Origin: an uncultured Clostridium sp.
Lineage (GTDB): Bacteria > Bacillota > Clostridia > Lachnospirales > Lachnospiraceae
Direction: 5' to 3'
Length of the DNA: 64,000 nt
NCBI GenBank assembly: GCA_945915475.1
Contig: CAMEFI010000015.1
Span: 3,277 to 67,276 of the forward strand
Below are positions 1,962-61,353 of the stretch, one piece after another (within the stretch, counting starts at the first letter, position 1; every line of letters starts with the position of its first letter). The notes below the pieces were generated by a model. It made no database searches. It worked only from the letters and a program-made list of their open reading frames with translations, and had not been told where the DNA came from. The position numbers and the translations under genes are program-made.

Positions 1962-2167
1962 TAGGCAATTGCGAAACTCTTGAAAATGCATATTGAGTTG
2001 TGAAGATTTGACAAGTATCCTAAGCAGGTGCTTTGAGACCGCCGGTACTTAACGAGTGTGAAACACGAGTTTAGTACCGCTGCGAGGCGAGAGCAGCGCA
2101 AGCGTGCCTGTGAGGATATTGTCAAATTGCACAACGTTTGAAGAAACAGGCGTTTCGCAAACGCCTA
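1962..2167 (-). mobile_element. MITE-like inverted-repeat element, copy 1 of 4 (inverted relative to copies 2-4)
   Basis: 206 bp. Termini are TAGGCAATTGCGAAACTCTTG ... CAGGCGTTTCGCAAACGCCTA. The interior is near identical to copies 2 and 3. It is flanked by direct repeats TTTCCTGGAA (1952-1961) and TTTCCCGGAA (2168-2177). It lies between hisD and hisB. Confidence 0.85.
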
Positions 2168-20210: not shown

Positions 20211-20237
20211 TTGCCTTGTCTCTCCTATAGAGATGAT

Positions 20238-20446
20238 TAGGCAATTGCGAAACGCCTGTTTCTTCTATAAACGTTGTGCAATTTGACAATATCCTCACAG
20301 GCACGCTTGCGCTGCTCTCGCCTCGCAGCGGTACTAAACTCGTGTTTCACACTCGTTAAGTACCGGCGGTCTCAAAGCACCTGCTTAGGATACTTGTCAA
20401 ATCTGCACAACTCAATATACATTTTCAGGCGTTTCGCAAATGCCTA
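20238..20446 (+). mobile_element. MITE-like inverted-repeat element, copy 2 of 4
   Basis: 209 bp. Termini are TAGGCAATTGCGAAACGCCTG ... CAGGCGTTTCGCAAATGCCTA (20 of 21 complementary). A perfect 12-bp direct repeat TATAGAGATGAT flanks it at 20226-20237 and 20447-20458. Confidence 0.9.
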
Positions 20447-20476
20447 TATAGAGATGATTTACGAAAGGAGTCTATC

Positions 20477-33989: not shown

Positions 33990-34319
33990 ATGGTTTCAGT
34001 TATGAATGATTATGTTTCAAAAATACATTTGACAGCAGGAGATGTAACAAAAGGAATTTTGAAAGCGGCTCTTCAGGATATGGACGAGGTTGCCAGGGAT
34101 AGTATTTTAGTGAAGTCGAATCGTTATATTGTGGATGTGAAGCTTAAACAATATTCTATTGAAAAGGCGGTGACCGTTATGAATACATTTATGGAACGGA
34201 CAAGATTTCATTATTCTGCATATTATATCCGGTACAATGAGGGAAATATGGTGAGATATCGTTATGCCACCTGTAAAGAAGACAGAGAGGGTTTCTATTG
34301 TGATGTGATTATTGCGTAG
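33990..34319 (+). CDS. Hypothetical protein
   Basis: 109-aa ORF after GGGAGGAA. No family recognised. Confidence 0.6.
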   Translation: MVSVMNDYVSKIHLTAGDVTKGILKAALQDMDEVARDSILVKSNRYIVDVKLKQYSIEKAVTVMNTFMERTRFHYSAYYIRYNEGNMVRYRYATCKEDREGFYCDVIIA

Positions 34320-34356
34320 ACCGAATTCATAGAGATATTCTATTTTTAATAAAACA

Positions 34357-34406
34357 AAAAGAACAACCAAATGATATATTATATATTATCAATTGGTTGT
34401 TCTTTT
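34357..34406. terminator. Bidirectional terminator hairpin between convergent genes
   Basis: AAAAGAACAACCAA, an AT-rich partly self-complementary loop, then TTGGTTGTTCTTTT. A and T tracts lie on either side. Confidence 0.7.
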
Positions 34407-34476
34407 GTTATACGCACCTTCTTGCAAGCAGGTAAAATTGTCTTCATAATATGATATAATTACGAATGTGTATATA

Positions 34477-35088
34477 TTAGAATGTACGGAATAGACCGAT
34501 TACTTTGCCCAAAATAGACACATCATCTACGATAATAGGATCCATGAAATCATTCTCAGGTTGTAGCTTATAATGTCCATCTTCTTTGAAAAATCGCTTA
34601 ACTGTAGCACTGTCGTCGACTAATGCAACAACAATTTCATTATTATGGGCAGTAGGCTGTTCTTCAACAAGAATTAAATCACCATCATAGATACCTACAT
34701 TGATCATACTTTCGCCTTTTACCTTGAGCATGAAAGTGGTTTTGTTGTGCAGATATTCAGGTGGAACAGGAAAATAACCATCAATATTCTCAACAGCCAA
34801 AATCGGTTCGCCTGCAGTGACCTGTCCAATAATTGGAACATTCACTAATTCTCTACGGGATAATCCAAATGTATCATCTAAAATTTCAATTGTTCTTGGC
34901 TTCGTGGGATCACGACGAATATAACCATTCTTCTCCAAAGTCTCAAGATGAGAGTGGACAGAAGAAGTGGACTTTAACTTAACGGCTTCACAAATCTCAC
35001 GAACAGACGGTGGATAGCCTTTCTGCAATATGTTTTCTTTGATATAATCTAATATCTCTTGTTGTTTGGAACTAATCTTACCAGGCAT
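34477..35088 (-). CDS. lexA: LexA repressor
   Basis: Winged-helix N-domain, AG cleavage site (QVTAGEP), and S24 peptidase Ser/Lys motifs (GESM ... VKR). Confidence 0.95.
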   Translation of the reverse strand: MPGKISSKQQEILDYIKENILQKGYPPSVREICEAVKLKSTSSVHSHLETLEKNGYIRRDPTKPRTIEILDDTFGLSRRELVNVPIIGQVTAGEPILAVENIDGYFPVPPEYLHNKTTFMLKVKGESMINVGIYDGDLILVEEQPTAHNNEIVVALVDDSATVKRFFKEDGHYKLQPENDFMDPIIVDDVSILGKVIGLFRTF

Positions 35089-35197
35089 AAAATCCTCCTT
35101 ATAAATAGATATTCAAATAATTAAAAAATCAATATAAATGTTTATGCAATCTGGTTACATCATAACATATTTCAAGACAAAAAGCAAACAAATATTC

Positions 35198-35237
35198 CGA
35201 ACAAATATTCCGAACAAATATTCCGAACATAATTTCG
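35198..35237. promoter_or_regulatory. Three head-to-tail SOS (Cheo-type) boxes upstream of lexA
   Basis: CGAACAAATATTCC (35198-35211), CGAACAAATATTCC (35211-35224) and CGAACATAATTTCG (35224-35237). Each shares 1 nt with the next. They arise from a 13-bp tandem repeat CAAATATTCCGAA present in three copies (35189-35227). Confidence 0.7.
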
Positions 35238-35246
35238 AAAAAAATA

Positions 35247-35275
35247 TTGACAAACATTTGTTCGTCTGTTAGAAT
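35247..35275 (+). promoter_or_regulatory. Promoter of the yneA-like gene with an embedded SOS box
   Basis: TTGACA (35247-35252), a 17-nt spacer, then TAGAAT (35270-35275). The spacer contains CAAACATTTGTTCG (35251-35264). Confidence 0.6.
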
Positions 35276-35283
35276 ACAGAAAA

Positions 35284-35297
35284 CGAACAAATATTCG
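35284..35297. promoter_or_regulatory. SOS box just downstream of the yneA-like promoter
   Basis: CGAACAAATATTCG matches the CGAAC-N4-GTTCG type consensus at 9 of 10 specified positions. Confidence 0.65.
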
Positions 35298-35321
35298 AAT
35301 GATATAAAGGAGAGGATAAGT

Positions 35322-35666
35322 ATGATGACTAGAGATAAGAATAATATTTTATATAACAACAGAAAGATTAACAATAATAGTATTATGTTTACTATTATAA
35401 TTATTATAGCATTATGTTTTTCTATTTTAGGTGGTATGCGCTTAGTTCAAGCTGATGAGAGCGTAGAATATGAGAAGAATTTTTATGCAATAGAAGTGCA
35501 GACAGGAGACACTTTAACTTCTATTGCACAGGAATATGCTCAGTCAAAAGCAGATTATCAAGATTATATGGAAGAGGTAATTGAGATCAATCAGTTGAAG
35601 GATGATAAGATTCATGCAGGATGTTATTTGATGATTCCTGTTTACACGGAAGTATCTTCAAAGTAG
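35322..35666 (+). CDS. YneA-like SOS cell-division inhibitor candidate (TM helix plus LysM domain)
   Basis: Divergent from lexA and behind SOS boxes. Has a TM segment (IMFTIIIIIALCFSILGG) and a LysM-like segment (YAIEVQTGDTLTSIAQEY). AAGGAGAGG RBS before ATG 35322. Confidence 0.7.
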   Translation: MMTRDKNNILYNNRKINNNSIMFTIIIIIALCFSILGGMRLVQADESVEYEKNFYAIEVQTGDTLTSIAQEYAQSKADYQDYMEEVIEINQLKDDKIHAGCYLMIPVYTEVSSK

Positions 35667-36364
35667 TGTAATAGAGCACTGTTTAGATTTTTTTGTATAT
35701 CCGGGAATTCATTTTTTGATTTCTGCAAGAATTCCTTAATTTCCTGACGTTTTGTATTCCCATCTGCCGGACATGGATTGGTCATAACAGGAATTTTGTT
35801 CTTGTATGTATATCCTTTAATTTCTTTTTCTTCAATATATAACATTGGTCTTATTAATGTTAATTCTGTACGATCCAGATGTGTTACCGGAGGAAAGCAA
35901 TAATATTGTCCTTCAAAAAATAGTGACATAATACTTGTTTCTATAAAATCATTTTTGTTATGCGCATATGCGATTTTATTACATCCTAAAGATAGAGCCA
36001 TATCATTTAAAGCACCCTTACGCATTTTAGCACATAAGGAACATGGATTCTTTTCTTTGCGTTTTTCAAAGATAATTGGATAGATTTGTGTACGAATAGC
36101 ATGAAATGGCACATCTAGGGAATTACAATATTGTTCCATGATGGGTATTACCTTATCAGCATTTGAACCAATCCCCAGATCCACATAGATTGCCATAAGA
36201 TTATATTGTTCAGGATAAAATGTCTGTAATTTTTTTAAACCATATAGAAGTGTCATGCTGTCTTTTCCACCTGATAAACCAACAGCAATTGTGTCACCGG
36301 ACTGAATCATTTGATATTTTTGTATACATTGTCTTAGATAGCTTAGTAATTTCTGAGTATCCAT
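35642..36364 (-). CDS. ttcA: PP-loop ATPase, TtcA-like tRNA 2-thiocytidine synthetase family
   Basis: SGGKDS PP-loop and Cys motifs (CSLC, NPCP). Start taken at Met35 of the tracked ORF (ATG at 36364, AAAGGA upstream). Confidence 0.75.
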   Translation of the reverse strand: MDTQKLLSYLRQCIQKYQMIQSGDTIAVGLSGGKDSMTLLYGLKKLQTFYPEQYNLMAIYVDLGIGSNADKVIPIMEQYCNSLDVPFHAIRTQIYPIIFEKRKEKNPCSLCAKMRKGALNDMALSLGCNKIAYAHNKNDFIETSIMSLFFEGQYYCFPPVTHLDRTELTLIRPMLYIEEKEIKGYTYKNKIPVMTNPCPADGNTKRQEIKEFLQKSKNEFPDIQKNLNSALLHYFEDTSV

Positions 36365-36629
36365 ATCATAGAATCCTTTCTTATTCTGATTGGTACAATA
36401 TAAAAGCCGTTTTTTAGCCTTTTTAGTATATTTCCCTGTTATTATTTTATTGGTAAAGTATATCACATAATATGATTATAGGATAGCCTGTAAAAAAAGA
36501 TTGCAATATGCAAAGAAGAGTGTTAATATATATCTAAGCCGCTATAACTATTCGCAAAACCCAGGTTTAACGAAAAGTTGAACTCACTTTTGCCTAAGTT
36601 GCTTTTCACACATATTATATGATCTGATT

Positions 36630-37709
36630 TTGAAAGGATGTGTTTTTTTGGCAGACAAGACTTACCACCAGGAGGAAGCAATTCATAATGTATTGTTGAT
36701 GCGAGACGTATTAAGTGGGCTTCCTAAATATGTATCGAACTATTTTCGTGCAATTGAATATTCTAAGGCTCCAAGAACTCGTCTTGGTTATGCTCGTGAT
36801 CTTAAGACATTTTTTGAGTTTCTAATTGCCTCAAATCCAGCTTTGAAGGACTTATCCCCTAGGGAAATTCCTATTTCTGTTATCGAACAGATTCAGGCTG
36901 AAGATATTGAGGAATATATGGATTACCTTAAAGTATATAAAAAGGATGGTCATCAATATACAAACAATGAACGGGCTTTAAAACGCAAATTGACAGCTTT
37001 GAGGATGTTTTTTGCATATTTATATAAGAATGGACAAATTCAGTCTAATCCGGCTCTTTTGGTTGATATGCCTAAAATACATGATAAGGCTATTGTTCGT
37101 ATGGATGCAAATGAGGTAGCACAGTTTTTAGATAACGTGGAATATGGTAATAAATTATCAGATCATCAACATGCTTATCATGAAAAAAATAAGAAACGAG
37201 ATTTGGCATTACTAACTTTGATGCTTGGAACCGGTATTCGTGTTTCGGAATGTGTTGGACTTGATATCAATGATGTAGATTTCGATTATGATCGAATCAA
37301 AGTGGTTCGTAAAGGCGGTTATGAATCATATGTGTATTTTGGTCAGGAAGCACGTGATGCATTATTGGATTATTTAGAAGAAAGAAAGGACATTGTAACT
37401 TGTGAAGGTCATGAAAATGCTCTGTTTTTGAGTTCTCAGAGAAAGCGTATTTCTGTTCGAAGTGTTGAAAATATGGTTAAGAAATATGCATCCATTACAA
37501 CACCTCTTAAGAAAATTACACCACATAAGTTACGTAGTACATATGGTACATCTTTATATCAACAGACATCCGATATATATCTTGTCGCAGATGTACTTGG
37601 ACACAAAGATGTCAATACAACTAAGAAACATTACGCAGATATTGATGATTGGCAAAGAATGAAAGCTAAAGATGCTGTTACTTTACGGGAGAAGCCAGAT
37701 CAATCATAA
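36630..37709 (+). CDS. Tyrosine recombinase, XerC/XerD family
   Basis: SAM-like N-domain and catalytic residues (TGIRVSE ... HKLRST ... LGHKDVNTTKKHY). The start is uncertain (TTG 36630 or TTG 36648). Confidence 0.85.
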   Translation: MKGCVFLADKTYHQEEAIHNVLLMRDVLSGLPKYVSNYFRAIEYSKAPRTRLGYARDLKTFFEFLIASNPALKDLSPREIPISVIEQIQAEDIEEYMDYLKVYKKDGHQYTNNERALKRKLTALRMFFAYLYKNGQIQSNPALLVDMPKIHDKAIVRMDANEVAQFLDNVEYGNKLSDHQHAYHEKNKKRDLALLTLMLGTGIRVSECVGLDINDVDFDYDRIKVVRKGGYESYVYFGQEARDALLDYLEERKDIVTCEGHENALFLSSQRKRISVRSVENMVKKYASITTPLKKITPHKLRSTYGTSLYQQTSDIYLVADVLGHKDVNTTKKHYADIDDWQRMKAKDAVTLREKPDQS

Positions 37710-37718
37710 ATACATTAA

Positions 37719-38639
37719 TTATGTGGTTGTATTTCGTAGTTTATTTAATAGATTTACGAAATATTCCGGTAACTCTGAATCAAATTCTATATATTGATTG
37801 GTATCCGGATGTATGAAGCCTAATGTCTTAGCATGTAAAGTTTGTCCTTCTAACCCTTTTATTTTCGTATTCTTAGGTCCATAGATGTCATCTCCAAGTA
37901 AAGGATGTCCGATAGAAGCCATATGAACGCGAATTTGGTGAGTCCGACCCGTTTCTAATGTACATTCAATATAAGAATAATGTTTGAATTGTTCAATTAT
38001 GCGATAATGTGTAATGGCTTCTCTTCCATTTTTATGATTAATAGCCATCTTTTTACGGTCAACCGGATGTCTTCCAATGGGAGCATTGATGGTTCCTGTT
38101 AATTTTTTAAATGTTCCATGACAGATAGCATGATATTTTCGTGTGATAGAATGTTCTTTTAGTTGTTCCGCTAAGAGTTTATGGGCATGATCATTTTTGC
38201 AGATGACTAGAATTCCGGTTGTATTCTGATCAATTCTGTGTACAATTCCCGGACGGATTACACCATTGATTGAAGATAAAGAATTTTTACAATGATATAG
38301 CAAAGCATTCACTAATGTTCCTGATTGATGTCCGGCAGCCGGATGGACTACCATGTGTTTTGGCTTGTTAACAATGATGATAGAATCATCTTCATATAGT
38401 ATATCCAAGGGAATATTCTCAGCAACAACATCTAATTCTTTTGCTTCTTCTACGAATACATATATTGTATCATTGTATTTGCATTTATAGTTTGACTTGC
38501 AGGATTTGCCATTAACAGTAACACATTCTCCCTGAATGAGCTGTTGAATATAAGAACGGGATAAGTCAGGAATCATATGGTTGATATATTTATCTATACG
38601 TTCTGGTGGATAATTGGGATATTTGAATGTGTAATCCAT
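37719..38639 (-). CDS. rluD: 23S rRNA pseudouridine synthase, RluD/RluA family
   Basis: S4 domain, and the HRIDQNTTG catalytic motif. Start at ATG 38639 after AAGGAGAG; the tracked ORF begins 21 nt earlier. Confidence 0.9.
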   Translation of the reverse strand: MDYTFKYPNYPPERIDKYINHMIPDLSRSYIQQLIQGECVTVNGKSCKSNYKCKYNDTIYVFVEEAKELDVVAENIPLDILYEDDSIIIVNKPKHMVVHPAAGHQSGTLVNALLYHCKNSLSSINGVIRPGIVHRIDQNTTGILVICKNDHAHKLLAEQLKEHSITRKYHAICHGTFKKLTGTINAPIGRHPVDRKKMAINHKNGREAITHYRIIEQFKHYSYIECTLETGRTHQIRVHMASIGHPLLGDDIYGPKNTKIKGLEGQTLHAKTLGFIHPDTNQYIEFDSELPEYFVNLLNKLRNTTT

Positions 38640-38699
38640 AAATGAACTCTCCTTATACAAGTACGAATTTGTTAACTTTCAAAAATCTAGGTATGCTTA

Positions 38700-38908
38700 T
38701 AGGCGTTTGCAAAATGCCTGTTTATTCTATAAACGTTGTGCAATTTGACAATATCCTCACAGGCACGCTTGCGCTGCTCTCGCCTCGCAGCGGTACTAAA
38801 CTCGTGTTTTACACTCGTTAAGTACCGGCGGTCTCAAAGCACCTGCTTAGGATACTTGTCAAATCTGCACAACTCAATATGCATTTTCAAGAGTTTCGCA
38901 ATTGCCTA
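38700..38908 (+). mobile_element. MITE-like inverted-repeat element, copy 3 of 4
   Basis: 209 bp. Termini are TAGGCGTTTGCAAAATGCCTG ... CAAGAGTTTCGCAATTGCCTA. A perfect direct repeat GGTATGCTTA flanks it at 38690-38699 and 38909-38918. If the shared CTA and T are counted, it extends to CTAGGTATGCTTAT. Confidence 0.9.
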
Positions 38909-39451
38909 GGTATGCTTATTGTGAAAGGAGAAAATGATTTCAAAATCTTCTTCCTTATATTTAAAAATAATCAAGAAAAGCAAAGCAAAAAATCCAAATG
39001 TCACATAGCAGTCAGCAATGTTGAAAACAGGAAAATCAATTAGTTTGAAGTATAAAAAATCAATTACATATTGAAAACGAATCCGGTCAATGAAGTTACC
39101 AATAGCACCAGATAAGATTAATATTAAAATAATTCTTAAATCACGGTAACAATTCATGTATAGGCAGCGCATGTAGATAGCAAAACCCAATGCAAGAACA
39201 ATAATCGTACAAATAGAAAATAATATCTGTTGATTCTGGAACATTCCCCATGCTGCACCTGCATTGCGAATATAATGGATTTCAAAAACATCCGGAATCA
39301 CTGGAATAGAATCGTATAAAGTCATATTGTGATCAATCAGATATTTTGCAACCTGATCCAATGCTATAAGTAAAAGAAATGAAAGGATTGCAGACAAAAT
39401 CTTGCCTGCAATCTTTGAGTTATCAGTTGAATTGTTTGTATGAGTATTCAA
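38906..39451 (-). CDS. lspA: Lipoprotein signal peptidase II
   Basis: LspA pattern (NAGAAWGM ... IGNFIDR ... VIDF ... FNIAD). TTG start after AGGAGA. The stop codon (CTA at 38906-38908) lies in the element terminus. Confidence 0.9.
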   Translation of the reverse strand: MNTHTNNSTDNSKIAGKILSAILSFLLLIALDQVAKYLIDHNMTLYDSIPVIPDVFEIHYIRNAGAAWGMFQNQQILFSICTIIVLALGFAIYMRCLYMNCYRDLRIILILILSGAIGNFIDRIRFQYVIDFLYFKLIDFPVFNIADCYVTFGFFALLFLIIFKYKEEDFEIIFSFHNKHT

Positions 39452-39462
39452 ATCTATGTCTC

Positions 39463-41151
39463 CTATAGGAAATTAAATCCTTCACTATCATCATCTTCAT
39501 TACCAATTAAATTGGATTCATTTATTTTGTCTTCGACGTCACCACTAAGAACATCTTCATTCTCCACAGATGCTGTCTGGCCAAATGGATCAATATTTAA
39601 ACTGGTATCTTGAAAGGAACCTGTTGTATTATTCAGTGATGAATCACCAAGTATAGTTGGAATCTCTTCATCCTCTTCATTGCCAACAAGAAAATCAAAT
39701 CCATCATTATAATTGTCTTCAGAATCTAACATAGTGGATTCATTGATCTTATCCTCTACTTCACCAGAATATGTTTCTTCATTTAAAGAATCATCATCCT
39801 CTTCCATAAAATCAAATCCATCACTGTAATTATCTTCGGAATCTAGCATGGTTGACTCATTCACTTTATTTTCAACTTCTCCGCTTACTGGTTCATCAGA
39901 GAAGAAATCTTCTGATGCAGATGTTGCATATTCTGTAGAGGAAGAATCTTCTTCCACAAAATCAAATCCATCACTGTAATTATCTTCAGAATCTAACATA
40001 GTGGATTCATTGATCTTGTCCTCTACTTCACCGCTAACAGTTGGTTCGGTATCAGGAGTACTATGCATGGAATCATTAGAAACTGTACCGATGGTATCGA
40101 CATTATTCGCTGTTTCTGTGGCATCGGCTACAGTATCATGAAATGCATCGGAACTCTGTGTGGATACTTTCTCTTTATTATAGATGGCTTCTGCTTGTGT
40201 CGGTGCAACCTGACGGAATGTTGGCCTCTTCTTTGTTTCAGTTTCTTTTGCCTTATTTTCAGAATTAGCAGACACATTCTGCTCAGTTGATACTTTTGGT
40301 GTATCTTGCTTTTTATCAGGAGCTTGTTTTACTGTAGCATCTGTTTGCACCGGAGTTCGTTTCATCCGTTTTGCATTCGGTTTCTCCTGTTTCATATTCA
40401 AAGAAGATTTATTGGAATCATTTTTGTTGGTACTATTCTTCTTAGAAGAATTACCGTTATATGCACCACCAGTCTGACGACTGAAACGTCCACCACCGTT
40501 CATAGCATCTGCAAACGGATCCATATTCAGTGTACCTCTGTCAAATGAAGGATCTTGATTGGTACGTTCAAAATTGCTACCATTATTACCCACATATCCA
40601 CCACCAAGGCCGCTTCCAAGACCGCCTTCCGATCCAAGACCTGCCCCGGAAAAATTACCAAATCCCGGATCATAAGAAGAGGCTGGTTCGAAGTCAGGAC
40701 CTAAATCAATGTCAATTATTTCACCATCCATCATCTTCAATTGTGATTGTAATACATGCGTAAATTGTTCTTTGAATTTCTTTTGTTGTTGCTGCAGGCG
40801 GAAAATCTCATTTTTGGTATCAGTTAATTCCTGTTTTGCATCAGCTAAAATACTTTCAGCTTTTTTTTCAGCCTCAGTTGTAATCTGCCGCGCCTTATCG
40901 TTTGCTGCATTTACTGTTTCCTCAGCGGTTTTCTCTGAAAGTGTTAAGGCCTTCTGCATGGAATCTTCTACGGATTTATAGTGTTGAAGACTTTCATTCA
41001 ATGTGGCAACTTTGTCATTTAATTCTACATTGGAGCGGTATAACTGCTCATAATCAGAGGATAACTCATGCATAAAGGCTTCGACATCCTTCTTATCAAA
41101 ACCAATACCGCCTTTAAATACTTTGTTTTGTAAATCAACTGGTGTTAACAT
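39463..41151 (-). CDS. divIVA: DivIVA-domain protein with a long low-complexity, repeat-bearing C-terminal extension
   Basis: N-terminal MLTPVDLQNKVFKGGIGFDKKDVEAFM DivIVA domain and coiled coil, followed by Gly- and Asn-rich low-complexity segments, then four acidic ~26-aa repeats. Confidence 0.9.
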   Translation of the reverse strand: MLTPVDLQNKVFKGGIGFDKKDVEAFMHELSSDYEQLYRSNVELNDKVATLNESLQHYKSVEDSMQKALTLSEKTAEETVNAANDKARQITTEAEKKAESILADAKQELTDTKNEIFRLQQQQKKFKEQFTHVLQSQLKMMDGEIIDIDLGPDFEPASSYDPGFGNFSGAGLGSEGGLGSGLGGGYVGNNGSNFERTNQDPSFDRGTLNMDPFADAMNGGGRFSRQTGGAYNGNSSKKNSTNKNDSNKSSLNMKQEKPNAKRMKRTPVQTDATVKQAPDKKQDTPKVSTEQNVSANSENKAKETETKKRPTFRQVAPTQAEAIYNKEKVSTQSSDAFHDTVADATETANNVDTIGTVSNDSMHSTPDTEPTVSGEVEDKINESTMLDSEDNYSDGFDFVEEDSSSTEYATSASEDFFSDEPVSGEVENKVNESTMLDSEDNYSDGFDFMEEDDDSLNEETYSGEVEDKINESTMLDSEDNYNDGFDFLVGNEEDEEIPTILGDSSLNNTTGSFQDTSLNIDPFGQTASVENEDVLSGDVEDKINESNLIGNEDDDSEGFNFL

Positions 41152-58467: not shown

Positions 58468-58497
58468 TTATATGCTCCTTTTATCATTTAAATCGAT

Positions 58498-58707
58498 TAA
58501 GTAATTGCGAAACTCCTGTGTAATCTATAAACGTTGTGCAGTTTTAACATTATCCACGCAGGCACGCTTTCGCTACTCTCGCCTCGCAGCGGTACTAAAC
58601 TCGTGTTTCACACTCGTTAAGTGCCGGCGGTCTCAAAGTACCTGCTTAGGATACATGTCAAATCTGCATAAACTAATATACTTTTTCACGAGTTTCGCAA
58701 TCACCTA
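58498..58707 (+). mobile_element. MITE-like inverted-repeat element, copy 4 of 4 (most diverged)
   Basis: 210 bp. Termini are TAAGTAATTGCGAAACTCCTG ... CACGAGTTTCGCAATCACCTA. The flanking repeats are degraded: TTTAAATCGAT (58487-58497) and TTTCAATCTAT (58708-58718), 9 of 11 identical. It lies between mutS and mutL. Confidence 0.85.
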
Positions 58708-61353
58708 TTTCAATCTATCCTGTAGATCATTCAGATATAACAGTGCTTTCATGGGCGTCATATTAGATAAGTCAAGCGCCTTGATATCCGCCACCACGCT
58801 GGATTCCTCTGCATTGCCAAAGAAGGAAAGCTGTCCGGCAGTATCTTTGCTCTTTCTGCCCTTTCCCTTAGAACCGGTATCTTCTAACACCTTTGGTATA
58901 ATATCCGTTGCAGCAGTTACCGTAATATCGTGCTCGGATAATTCAGCTGCAATCTCCTTTGCACGGGCAAGTACAACCTCCGGAACTCCAGCTAATTTTG
59001 CAACCTGAATACCGTAGCTTTTATCCGCACCGCCTTTGATAATCTTACGAAGAAATACAATATCATCCCCGGATTCCTTTACCGAGATGCAGTAATTGTT
59101 CACGCTGTCTAATTTTCCCTCTAATTCCGTCAGTTCATGGTAATGGGTGGCAAATAATGTCTTTGCCCCTAATAAATCCTTGGAACTTATATATTCCACC
59201 ACCGCCCAGGCAATGGAAAGTCCATCATAGGTGGAGGTTCCCCGTCCGATTTCATCTAATATCAGCAGACTGTTAGATGTGGCATTTCTTAAAATATTTG
59301 CCACTTCGCTCATCTCCACCATAAAGGTACTCTGTCCGGAGGCAAGATCATCGGAAGCTCCCACACGGGTAAAGATTCGATCCACAATACCTATATCTGC
59401 CGAAGCTGCCGGTACAAAAGAGCCAATCTGTGCCATCAGTACGATCAATGCCACCTGGCGCATATAGGTGGATTTGCCCGCCATATTCGGTCCGGTAATG
59501 ATGGATACCCGATTCAAATCATTATCCAACAAGGTGTCGTTGGTGATAAAGGAATCATTATCCAGTACCTTTTCCACCACAGGGTGCCGTCCCTCTTTAA
59601 TCTCAATCCGTCCCTCCGTGTTAATGGATGGTCTGACAAAATGATTCTTCTCTGCCACATAGGCAAGGGATGCCAAAGCGTCCAGATCTGCGATGATTTT
59701 TGCAGCTTTCTGGACACGTTTTACCTCTTTTGCAAGATTATCTCTGACTTCCACAAATAAATCGTATTCTAAGCCAAATAAACGATCCTCCGCACCAAGA
59801 ATCTTGCCTGCAATATCCTCTAATTCATCGGAGGAATAGCGCTCTGAATTGGCGAGGGTCTGTTTTCGGATAAAATGCTCCGGTACAAGCTCCTTATAGG
59901 AGTTGGTCACATCAAAATAATACCCAAAAACCTTGTTGAATTTGATTTTCAGATTCTTGATTCCCGTTGCCTCCCGTTCCTTAGTTTCCAAATCAATGAG
60001 CCAGCTTTTTCCATCGGACTTGGCATTTTTTAAAATATCTACCGTTTCGTTGTAGCCGTCTTTGATGATACCACCCTCTTTTACAAGAATTGGCGGTTCC
60101 TCCACGATGGCTGTTTCAATGGTATCATAAAGGTCTGTAAGCTCGTCCAGCTCCCTTTCGTATTCTGCAAGCAATCCTTTGTCAAATTCCTGTAAAATAG
60201 CTTTTACATGGGGCAGAATGGCAATGGAATTCTTAAAGGCAATCAAATCTCTTGGATTTGCCGTTTTCAGTGTAATTCTCGTCATGAGACGCTCTAAATC
60301 ATAAACAGCATTCAGATATTCCCTTAATTCATCTCTGGTAATCATGGAATTGTTAAGGGCTTCTATGGCATCTAAACGGTTCTCTATCACTTCCCTGCGG
60401 ATGCATGGCTGTTCCACCATGGAACGCAGTGTTCTTGCTCCCATGGCGGTTTTCGTTTTATCAAGCACCCATAGCAGAGAGCCGCGTTTATTCTTATCCC
60501 GCATGGTCTCGCAAAGCTCCAGATTCCGTCTGGAAGCGCTGTCTAACACTACAAAATCCTCCACATGATAGGTGCTGATGTGGTTGATATGCTCCACAGC
60601 ACCCTTTTGTGTATCCTTCAGATAATACAAAAGACAACCTACAGAGCGGACTGCCTGTGGGTAATCCTTTAACCCTAATCCCTCAATATTCATCATATGG
60701 AACTGTTCTTTGATCAAACGCTCATCCATATCGTAGTCGTAATACCAGTCTTCCATAACGGTAATCATGGTATGCTCCTTTTCCCGAAGAGCCGACAGGC
60801 TTACCCCGATGCTTCCCTGTTCCTCTAAGGAAACGGCTCCGTTTACCAAAATCTCCACCGGCGAAAACTTTGATATCTCATCCATTACCTTTGCAAAGGT
60901 TTCCACCTCCGTGGTATAAAAATCTCCTGTGGTAATGTCTACAAAAGAAATGCCAAAGCATTTATCATAGAAAATGCTCATTAGGTAATTGTTCTTTGCT
61001 TCATTGAGACTTCCGGTACTCATATTGGTTCCCGGAGTCACAACTTTTATTACTTCACGTTTCACAAGGCCTTTTGCCTGTTTTGGATCTTCTACCTGTT
61101 CACAGATAGCAACCTTATACCCCTTTTCCACCAGACGGTTCAAATAATTTTCATACGCATGATACGGAATACCACACATAGGAGCACGTTCCTCCATACC
61201 GCAGTCTTTGCCGGTCAAGGTGATTTCCAACTCTTTCGATGCCGTTATGGCATCATCAAAAAACATTTCATAAAAATCGCCTAACCGGTAAAACAGGATA
61301 CAGTCCTTGTACTCTTCTTTAGTTTTACAGTACATTTCCATCATTGGTGTCAT
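58705..61353 (-). CDS. mutS: DNA mismatch repair protein MutS
   Basis: Mismatch-binding N-domain (FYRLGDFYEMFF), Walker A GPNMAGKST and the ILDEIGRGTST block. The stop codon (CTA at 58705-58707) is the element terminus. Confidence 0.95.
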   Translation of the reverse strand: MTPMMEMYCKTKEEYKDCILFYRLGDFYEMFFDDAITASKELEITLTGKDCGMEERAPMCGIPYHAYENYLNRLVEKGYKVAICEQVEDPKQAKGLVKREVIKVVTPGTNMSTGSLNEAKNNYLMSIFYDKCFGISFVDITTGDFYTTEVETFAKVMDEISKFSPVEILVNGAVSLEEQGSIGVSLSALREKEHTMITVMEDWYYDYDMDERLIKEQFHMMNIEGLGLKDYPQAVRSVGCLLYYLKDTQKGAVEHINHISTYHVEDFVVLDSASRRNLELCETMRDKNKRGSLLWVLDKTKTAMGARTLRSMVEQPCIRREVIENRLDAIEALNNSMITRDELREYLNAVYDLERLMTRITLKTANPRDLIAFKNSIAILPHVKAILQEFDKGLLAEYERELDELTDLYDTIETAIVEEPPILVKEGGIIKDGYNETVDILKNAKSDGKSWLIDLETKEREATGIKNLKIKFNKVFGYYFDVTNSYKELVPEHFIRKQTLANSERYSSDELEDIAGKILGAEDRLFGLEYDLFVEVRDNLAKEVKRVQKAAKIIADLDALASLAYVAEKNHFVRPSINTEGRIEIKEGRHPVVEKVLDNDSFITNDTLLDNDLNRVSIITGPNMAGKSTYMRQVALIVLMAQIGSFVPAASADIGIVDRIFTRVGASDDLASGQSTFMVEMSEVANILRNATSNSLLILDEIGRGTSTYDGLSIAWAVVEYISSKDLLGAKTLFATHYHELTELEGKLDSVNNYCISVKESGDDIVFLRKIIKGGADKSYGIQVAKLAGVPEVVLARAKEIAAELSEHDITVTAATDIIPKVLEDTGSKGKGRKSKDTAGQLSFFGNAEESSVVADIKALDLSNMTPMKALLYLNDLQDRLK

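Follow-up and report, generated by a model that had tools for sequence, protein, structure and literature searches.

MITEs derived from insertion sequences (ISs), such as MIC231, which derives from IS231, or MITEAba12, are short, noncoding, multicopy elements that have the terminal repeats of an IS, make duplications of the same length, and are moved in trans. Inverted-repeat elements of 100 to 200 bp are also found between cotranscribed genes in Neisseria (Correia elements) and in enterobacteria (ERIC elements), where they give long hairpins in the mRNA. Correia elements duplicate TA and can carry outward promoters, and we know of no autonomous partner for them. Among ISs, the IS1182 family comprises elements of ~1.3 to 1.95 kb with a single ORF and terminal repeats; characteristic of it are variable or long duplications and an interaction with stem-loops. 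Members such as IS1272 show unusual, structure-related target use (PMC5678879), and IS1272 of staphylococci replaces target stem-loops without any duplication (PMC5678879). Finally, REP/BIME and REPIN hairpins are imperfect palindromes that are intergenic, multicopy, often located past gene ends, and grouped in tandem or inverted clusters, traits that the core-bearing hairpins described below have too. REPs are ~20 to 40 nt long, do not duplicate their target, require a RAYT gene, and have a 5' GTAG-type motif; we found none of these features for the repeat described here.

This repeat is present four times in a 64-kb stretch of DNA, hereafter called the window. We estimate at roughly 80% the probability that its copies are those of a MITE that is moved in trans, inserts immediately before ribosome-binding sites, and contains a captured hairpin module. 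It has in common with IS-derived MITEs all the features listed above but differs from them in that its interior is a foreign structured module rather than the remnant of an IS deletion and in that its insertions keep a constant distance to a Shine-Dalgarno-like motif. Were it only a MITE, it would be ordinary; what is unusual is its target position together with an independently conserved structured module.

The copies, named c1 to c4, were found at the places that a sequence-only reading of the window had given them; they could be aligned over their whole length, and a repeat search recovered the three direct ones. The flanking genes also turned out as that reading had named them. Copy c1 (206 bp, positions 1962 to 2167, minus strand) occupies the hisD/hisB spacer, 29 nt from its end to the hisB ATG (2197), and c2 (209 bp, 20238 to 20446, plus strand) separates proA from an AAA ATPase gene, whose ATG (20477) lies 30 nt beyond the end of the copy. 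The ATPase has a match to the MadB family that stays below the threshold. Copy c3 (209 bp, 38700 to 38908, plus strand) lies between lspA and a rluD-like gene, both on the minus strand, 60 nt from the rluD-like ATG (38639), and c4 (210 bp, 58498 to 58707, plus strand) lies between mutS and mutL, again both on the minus strand, 30 nt from the mutL ATG (58467). As had been noticed, c1 to c3 are nearly identical, with a global pairwise identity of 95.2 to 96.2%, whereas c4 has diverged and shares 85.8 to 87.7% with them. The sequence of c1 lacks 3 nt (TAT) that are present in c2 and c3. Since c4 is 91.9% identical to copies from another Lachnospiraceae MAG, two subfamilies coexist in the source genome.

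The interior is GC rich, again in line with the sequence-only reading: the GC fraction is 0.43 to 0.47 in the copies and 0.51 to 0.53 in their central core, compared to 0.378 in the window. No ORF of at least 100 aa has its start inside any copy, and two frames that start in the flanks enter copies, namely, 58505 to 59008 and 2104 to 2790, the latter being an upstream extension of hisB, which has its ATG at 2197. At two places the end of the element is also the end of a gene. The terminal TAG of c3 (38906 to 38908) is the stop codon of lspA, and the terminal TAG of c4 (58705 to 58707) is that of mutS, the c4 duplication being located inside the last four mutS codons. The TAG of the element stands in place of the original TGA, by which the length of MutS has been kept (...DRLK* versus an inferred ...DRFK*).

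Terminal inverted repeats of ~21 bp, with the core TTGCGAAAC/GTTTCGCAA, were found in every copy. In c2, where 20 of the 21 positions are complementary, the left repeat TAGGCAATTGCGAAACGCCTG spans 20238 to 20258 (plus strand) and the right repeat, which reads CAGGCGTTTCGCAAATGCCTA on the plus strand, spans 20426 to 20446 (minus strand). The latter is a small palindrome by itself (GGCGTTT-CGC-AAATGCC). The sequence-only reading was therefore right on the repeats. It had overlooked the duplications around them, the insertion close to Shine-Dalgarno-like motifs, and the nature of the interior as a separately conserved structured module.

Every copy in the window is bracketed by its own target-site duplication of 10 to 12 bp. 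For c2, TATAGAGATGAT is present at 20226 to 20237 and again at 20447 to 20458 (12/12 matches), and for c3, GGTATGCTTA is present at 38690 to 38699 and 38909 to 38918 (10/10 matches, or 12 bp if the preceding TA is counted). The duplication of c1 (TTTCCTGGAA at 1952 to 1961, TTTCCCGGAA at 2168 to 2177) matches at 9/10 positions, and that of c4 (TTTAAATCGAT at 58487 to 58497, TTTCAATCTAT at 58708 to 58718) matches at 9/11. The duplications are thus perfect in c2 and c3, as they are at several other loci, and decayed in c1 and c4. Terminal repeats with copy-specific duplications of 10 to 12 bp were also present at ~20 further sites, some of them in the genomes of relatives (such as GTTTTTCTATC, TCATACTGAT, TATGTTTTGGAA, TAAAACTTATC, and AATACCATCTTA).

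Scanning contigs of a gut viral collection (IMG/VR) for the terminal repeats yielded six elements of 1,745 to 1,796 bp with the same ends. One of them, at 440 to 2207 of contig L159, is a full-length IS of 1,768 bp, whose duplication (GGTATTAACTA) measures 11 bp and whose single ORF encodes 490 aa; full-length copies of the IS have duplications of 10 to 14 bp. In the 490-aa protein, DUF772 scores above the Pfam threshold (E 4.6e-13), and DDE_Tnp_1 and DDE_Tnp_1_6 give weak matches, that to DDE_Tnp_1_6 being subthreshold. The best NCBIfam family is IS1182 (NF033551), with 72.5 bits against a cutoff of 270, and we therefore name the partner IS1182-like and do not count it as a proven member. It resembles that family in its DUF772, its C terminus of the DDE_Tnp_1_6 type, its length of ~1.8 kb, and its one ORF, and it fits the general description of the family in size, ORF number, repeats, and duplications. 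Unlike IS1272, the element in the window makes regular duplications of 10 to 12 bp, beside ribosome-binding sites. More than 4,400 homologues of the transposase were found in gut metagenomes, in Blautia and other Lachnospiraceae, where they are named only "transposase." An IS that is 82% identical and has the same ends is carried by pCY360 of Butyrivibrio proteoclasticus B316 (L177, 256 to 2021), where two copies stand in tandem with a common CATTTATTTATAAA flank. The IS and the MITE have only ~20 bp per end in common. No transposase is encoded in the window, the sequence-only reading having seen none in or near any copy; tblastn with the partner transposase gave a best E value of 1.1.

The MITE interpretation put forward in the sequence-only reading is supported by the size of the element, its lack of coding capacity, its inverted repeats, the varying duplications, the dispersed copies, an empty orthologous site in a related species, and an IS with the same ends, and we regard this mechanism as well supported. 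The 490-aa DDE transposase of the 1.77-kb Lachnospiraceae IS, which is known from other contigs, would move the element in trans, and a staggered cleavage of the target would give the duplication of 10 to 12 bp. The comparison with Correia and ERIC elements that had been drawn holds as an analogy only: the host range and the duplication of TA argue against membership, the element appears to bear no sequence relation to either, and neither has a core common to unrelated hairpin families.

An empty site was found in a related species (L176) whose proA is 86% identical and in which the order of proA and the ATPase gene is the same. There, the spacer measures 22 nt compared to 266 nt in the window, and this junction is the empty orthologous site, in a different species. 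The comparison is thus one between species, the contigs of the window's own species on record numbering two to four. Two contigs with the proA of this window stop ~57 nt past the gene, within the element.

We then looked at where else the element occurs. Among 185,579 species-representative genomes, the exact central 20-mer turned up in no more than 23 stretches. Each of these belongs to a MAG of Lachnospiraceae or other Clostridia, and many of the matches lie at contig ends, as expected of a repeat that breaks assemblies. One related MAG holds at least eight copies, and gut metagenomes and related MAGs of Lachnospiraceae contain further copies, at different sites. BLAST of the element against plasmids returned nothing, and against phages it returned one unverified "Bacteriophage sp." contig with a sibling MITE. 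In locus L006 (5545 to 5889), a core-bearing MITE of 209 bp and a core-less one of 126 bp with the same terminal repeats are adjacent at a common target, GTTTTTCTATC. These side-by-side MITEs and the tandem ISs of pCY360 suggest that one target is used repeatedly. The copy at L005 (1 to 200) has an extra insertion of ~70 nt (CTCTCGTATGGGTAGGGACAAGTGC...) in the P2 region of its core. Several contigs (L033, L061, L101, L111, and L125 in cluster 1, L069 in cluster 2, and L036, L118, and L142) join the left flank of one copy to the right flank of another, which reflects either recombination between copies or a metagenome misassembly over the repeat. Because the element breaks metagenome assemblies at core genes, it is a practical matter for the reconstruction of Lachnospiraceae MAGs.

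To describe the target, 23 independent insertion sites (19 MITE copies and 4 full-length ISs) were oriented by the nearest start codon. The order of the flank was the same at 22 of the 23: an AT-rich duplication at positions 1 to 11 from the element end, usually starting with TA, was followed by ~4 nt, by AAAGGAG at 16 to 22 nt, and by the start codon at 26 to 33 nt. In the window, c3 with its gap of 60 nt is the exception, the gaps of c1, c2, and c4 being 29, 30, and 30 nt as given above. Wherever the two ends could be distinguished (c1, c3, L006, L020, L166, and the four ISs), the end proximal to the gene was of the palindromic GGCGTTTCGCAAACGCCTA type, with one site (present in L132 and L142) as an exception to this rule.

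Such a tight spacing cannot be explained only by harmless insertions having survived, and ISs in long intergenic regions show it too; we therefore infer an oriented target choice. The transposition machinery would direct insertion ~16 nt upstream of the Shine-Dalgarno-like AAAGGAG and ~30 nt before the start codon, usually with the palindromic GGCGTTTCGCAAACGCCTA-type end facing the gene. This preference would account for the presence of all four copies in short spacers between codirectional genes. The choice could be that of the transposase, a cause read from the pattern of sites, and the survival of harmless insertions may partly account for the pattern. In the literature that we searched, we found no report of IS1182-type targeting next to ribosome-binding sites. 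A DDE transposon with a fixed distance and polarity to ribosome-binding sites would, if true, represent a new kind of target selection and a ready means of introducing sequences between operon genes.

The position could also be the outcome of selection, if the MITE were kept because it regulates the downstream gene, through either an outward promoter or a 5' hairpin by the ribosome-binding site. In favor of this, the copies all lie directly upstream of a ribosome-binding site, and outward promoter-like hexamers are present at both ends (TTGTCA-16-TAGAAT in c3, 10/12 matches; TTGTCA-18-TACATT in c2, 9/12 matches). However, the -10-like hexamers vary among copies (TAGAAG, TAGATT, and TGCATT), and selection alone would not produce an AAAGGAG spacing that is fixed within ~2 nt at 22 of 23 sites, including those of full-length ISs in long intergenic regions. 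We thus consider it unlikely that regulation explains the position, and we favor an oriented choice of the target during transposition.

The central part of each copy is a hairpin, hereafter called the core. A covariance model of the core, applied to the 64 kb, returned exactly four places, each on the expected strand: 2011 to 2124 (minus strand) in c1 with 80.3 bits, 20284 to 20397 (plus strand) in c2 with 80.3 bits, 38746 to 38859 (plus strand) in c3 with 80.6 bits, and 58545 to 58658 (plus strand) in c4 with 87.8 bits. These scores of 80 to 88 bits (E 1e-18 to 1e-20) are far beyond chance, and the opposite strand gave only partial matches of ~17 bits. On the loci that we fetched, the same model gave 173 matches, including copies missed by the exact pattern, and the degenerate pattern CAGCGGTACTAA-N14-44-TAAGTRCCGGC was found in at least 120 stretches of metagenome contigs. 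Among the matches listed, 131 distinct instances had 170 nt or more of flank on both sides; these formed 50 clusters with no similarity beyond the core. At least 50 unrelated hairpin families of gut Clostridia have this conserved hairpin module, the central ~114 nt of the MITE, in common.

The core model found no core in the full-length copies of the IS. Conversely, the terminal repeats also surround interiors that have no core: an element of 188 bp (L163/L164) with the duplication TAACCAATAA and an unrelated interior, the element of 126 bp in L006 (5764 to 5889), also with an unrelated interior, which shares its target with an adjacent 209-bp copy, and a truncated element of 94 bp (L153). The existence of elements with the same terminal repeats and no core indicates that the core is captured cargo and that the IS was not the source of the interior. 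Another MITE-like family, with the terminal repeats CAATGTCATTAAGTTAAG (L030, L037, L096, and L109), bears the same core, so that mobile elements of more than one kind have captured, or use, the module.

Cores were also seen in other arrangements. Head-to-tail tandem arrays without terminal repeats lie in intergenic regions of L007 (5820 to 6260, 164-nt period), L121 (3528 to 3951, ~300 nt), and L002, and convergent pairs, plus then minus, with 200 to 330 nt between the two cores, are present in L091, L087, L008, L052, L044, L035, L043, and L032. No conserved sequence was found across loci between the cores of such pairs. Clustering of the 883 ORFs within 2.5 kb of cores revealed no dedicated partner gene; the families obtained (ABC ATPase, MATE, map, EF-Tu, and others) were all housekeeping ones. 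A 5' GGACGC motif ~58 nt upstream of the core was rejected as a general feature, being present in ~7 of 50 families.

From 5' to 3', the core starts with a variable helix P1, followed by an internal loop with (C)ACGCTnnCGCT on its 5' side opposite ~3 to 5 nt (often AAnG) and by P2, a helix of ~10 bp that is variable except for its last CGC/GCG. An AG bulge separates P2 from P3a (CGGTACT/AGTRCCG), after which come an A.A mismatch, an A-T pair, and a variable apical stem of 10 to 60 nt. Types of apical stem recur, with RAAAKAC-type loops, a TC/TC internal loop, or CTTCGC...GCTCG. The invariant unpaired nucleotides are those of the CGCTnnCGCT loop, the AG bulge, and the A.A mismatch, and the invariance of P3a was partly imposed by the search patterns used.

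We assessed pairing on a MAFFT alignment of 32 diverse cores, which was built without structure and from which the covariance model was also made. In P2 and P3, 84% of the cells were paired and 13 pairs changed on both sides. The covariation score was 0.351 compared to 0.127 for shuffles (0/500 reached the observed value), and it was at most 0.128 in slid controls. When 80 matches were aligned by the covariance model, 30 of 35 pairs changed on both sides, in an alignment that leans towards the model. In this model-fitted alignment, even the near-invariant C-G that closes P2 is replaced by U-A in six sequences.

None of the 4227 models of Rfam 15 matched, which is the outcome of a scan that the sequence-only reading had proposed; no family was found with the window at gathering scores, with c2 at E values up to 10, or over the cores of 15 diverse loci. 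Our literature searches on Lachnospiraceae MITEs, the core sequence, REPs in Clostridia, and IS1182 targeting retrieved no description of the element, and the hairpin module is apparently undescribed. Several other resemblances that we considered (the MOBQ oriT nick site, ssoA CS-6, integron attC, group II intron domain V, the Cas12a repeat, the ops element, the sigma-54 promoter, and the Bacillus subtilis Chi site AGCGG) were dismissed as short chance matches. A covarying, sequence-conserved hairpin that is widespread in abundant bacteria of the human gut and absent from Rfam is a candidate for a new RNA class or for a recognition element in single-stranded DNA.

To see which strand would fold, G.T and A.C combinations were counted. 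The ratio was 76:32 in P2 and 49:4 in P3, the excess in P3 coming mostly from one position that the search pattern allowed as R, and for P1, the outer helix, it was 38:53. By their G.U excess, the inner helices indicate that the inner part folds as the CGCTnnCGCT...CAGCGGTACTAA strand. Among 70 non-MITE cores, those between codirectional genes were sense in 32 cases and antisense in 15, and 18 cores lay in convergent and 5 in divergent regions, counts that orthologous loci inflate somewhat. The median distance of a non-MITE core from the upstream stop codon was 88 nt. Downstream of map, in two species, the core was 78% conserved, like the map coding sequence (65 to 80%), compared to 37 to 53% for the outer parts of the hairpin and the downstream DNA. 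Together, the inner G.U excess, the sense bias, and the conservation at the map locus favor a host RNA function at transcript 3' ends.

Inside the MITE, the core is antisense to the flanking genes in 3 of the 4 window copies and in 12 of 20 MITE copies, as would be expected if the transposase, and not the cargo, sets the orientation. A search for a terminator, or for a promoter inside the element that would drive the folding strand, gave nothing convincing, and a terminator-like call in c3 proved to be merely the palindromic terminal repeat. Our best guess, based on sequence comparison, is that outside MITEs the core would act as a structured RNA at the 3' ends of transcripts, which is the weakest step of the proposed mechanism, and that inside the MITE it would ride along as a passenger, its orientation being determined by the transposase rather than by what the core does.

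The structure pattern recalls twister-sister, hatchet, and pistol, structured RNAs of Rfam known from gut metagenomes, which also combine invariant loop and bulge nucleotides, covarying stems, and variable apical stems with many copies per genome and an association with mobile DNA. The core differs from these small self-cleaving ribozymes in having no Rfam match, and the likeness is one of structure pattern alone. We tentatively suggest, as a possibility to which we give less than even odds, that the core belongs to an undescribed class of functional RNA of gut Lachnospiraceae and related Clostridia, either catalytic or the specific ligand of a protein, which normally lies at gene 3' ends and was captured and spread by a MITE of an IS1182-like element whose transposase reads the Shine-Dalgarno-like motif at a set distance and orientation.

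The pairing might instead have been kept by processes acting on DNA, such as the hairpin or cruciform needs of transposition or gene conversion from arm to arm; the interior would then be a functionless palindromic filler and the shared core a mark of common MITE descent. This would suit the whole element, which is a near-perfect foldback with a z of -13 on either strand (the minus strand being the more stable), as well as the outer helix P1 with its lack of G.U excess, and some elements of the IS1182 family (IS1272) have been reported to act on stem-loops (PMC5678879). It is hard to reconcile, however, with conserved blocks that alternate with freely covarying stems in at least 50 families, with unpaired nucleotides that are invariant and apical loops of recurrent types, or with a core whose conservation downstream of map, unlike that of its flanks, matches that of coding sequence. 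Furthermore, core-less elements that have these terminal repeats do transpose. We therefore hold a functionless interior to be quite improbable and retain the view of a captured module that probably has a function of its own. That the core is REP- or REPIN-like, i.e., the recognition site of a single-copy HUH (RAYT/IS200-like) enzyme that copies the hairpin via single-stranded DNA, the IS terminal repeats having been acquired secondarily, appears to us highly doubtful: its multicopy, intergenic occurrence with depletion from divergent promoter regions (5/70 non-MITE copies), the tandem arrays (such as that with a 164-nt period in L007), the convergent pairs 200 to 330 nt apart, and a sequence-conserved stem whose fixed mismatch and bulge suggest protein recognition of a folded single strand all speak for such a site, but no gene recurrently accompanies the cores, a limited test detected no HUH/Y1 transposase in the 883 ORFs within 2.5 kb of them, the window copies with their terminal repeats and duplications of 10 to 12 bp are not products of HUH transposition, and the orientation bias past stop codons and the G.U excess fit an RNA equally well or better.

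Apart from the MITE copies, other features of the window were recorded. Within 34000 to 39000, the GC skew changes from ~+0.2 to ~-0.12 and the gene orientation changes from plus to minus, both at ~36 to 38 kb, and this joint switch is the signature of a replication terminus. At the switch lies a gene for a tyrosine recombinase (36630 to 37709, plus strand, Phage_integrase domain), which may be Xer-like, and nearby, in an intergenic region, 35174 to 35238 holds about five tandem copies of a 13-nt unit, AACAAATATTCCG. Finally, a gene for a 562-aa DivIVA-domain protein (39463 to 41151, minus strand) contains internal direct repeats of 118 nt (39654 to 40038), which translate into a repeated segment of the protein.
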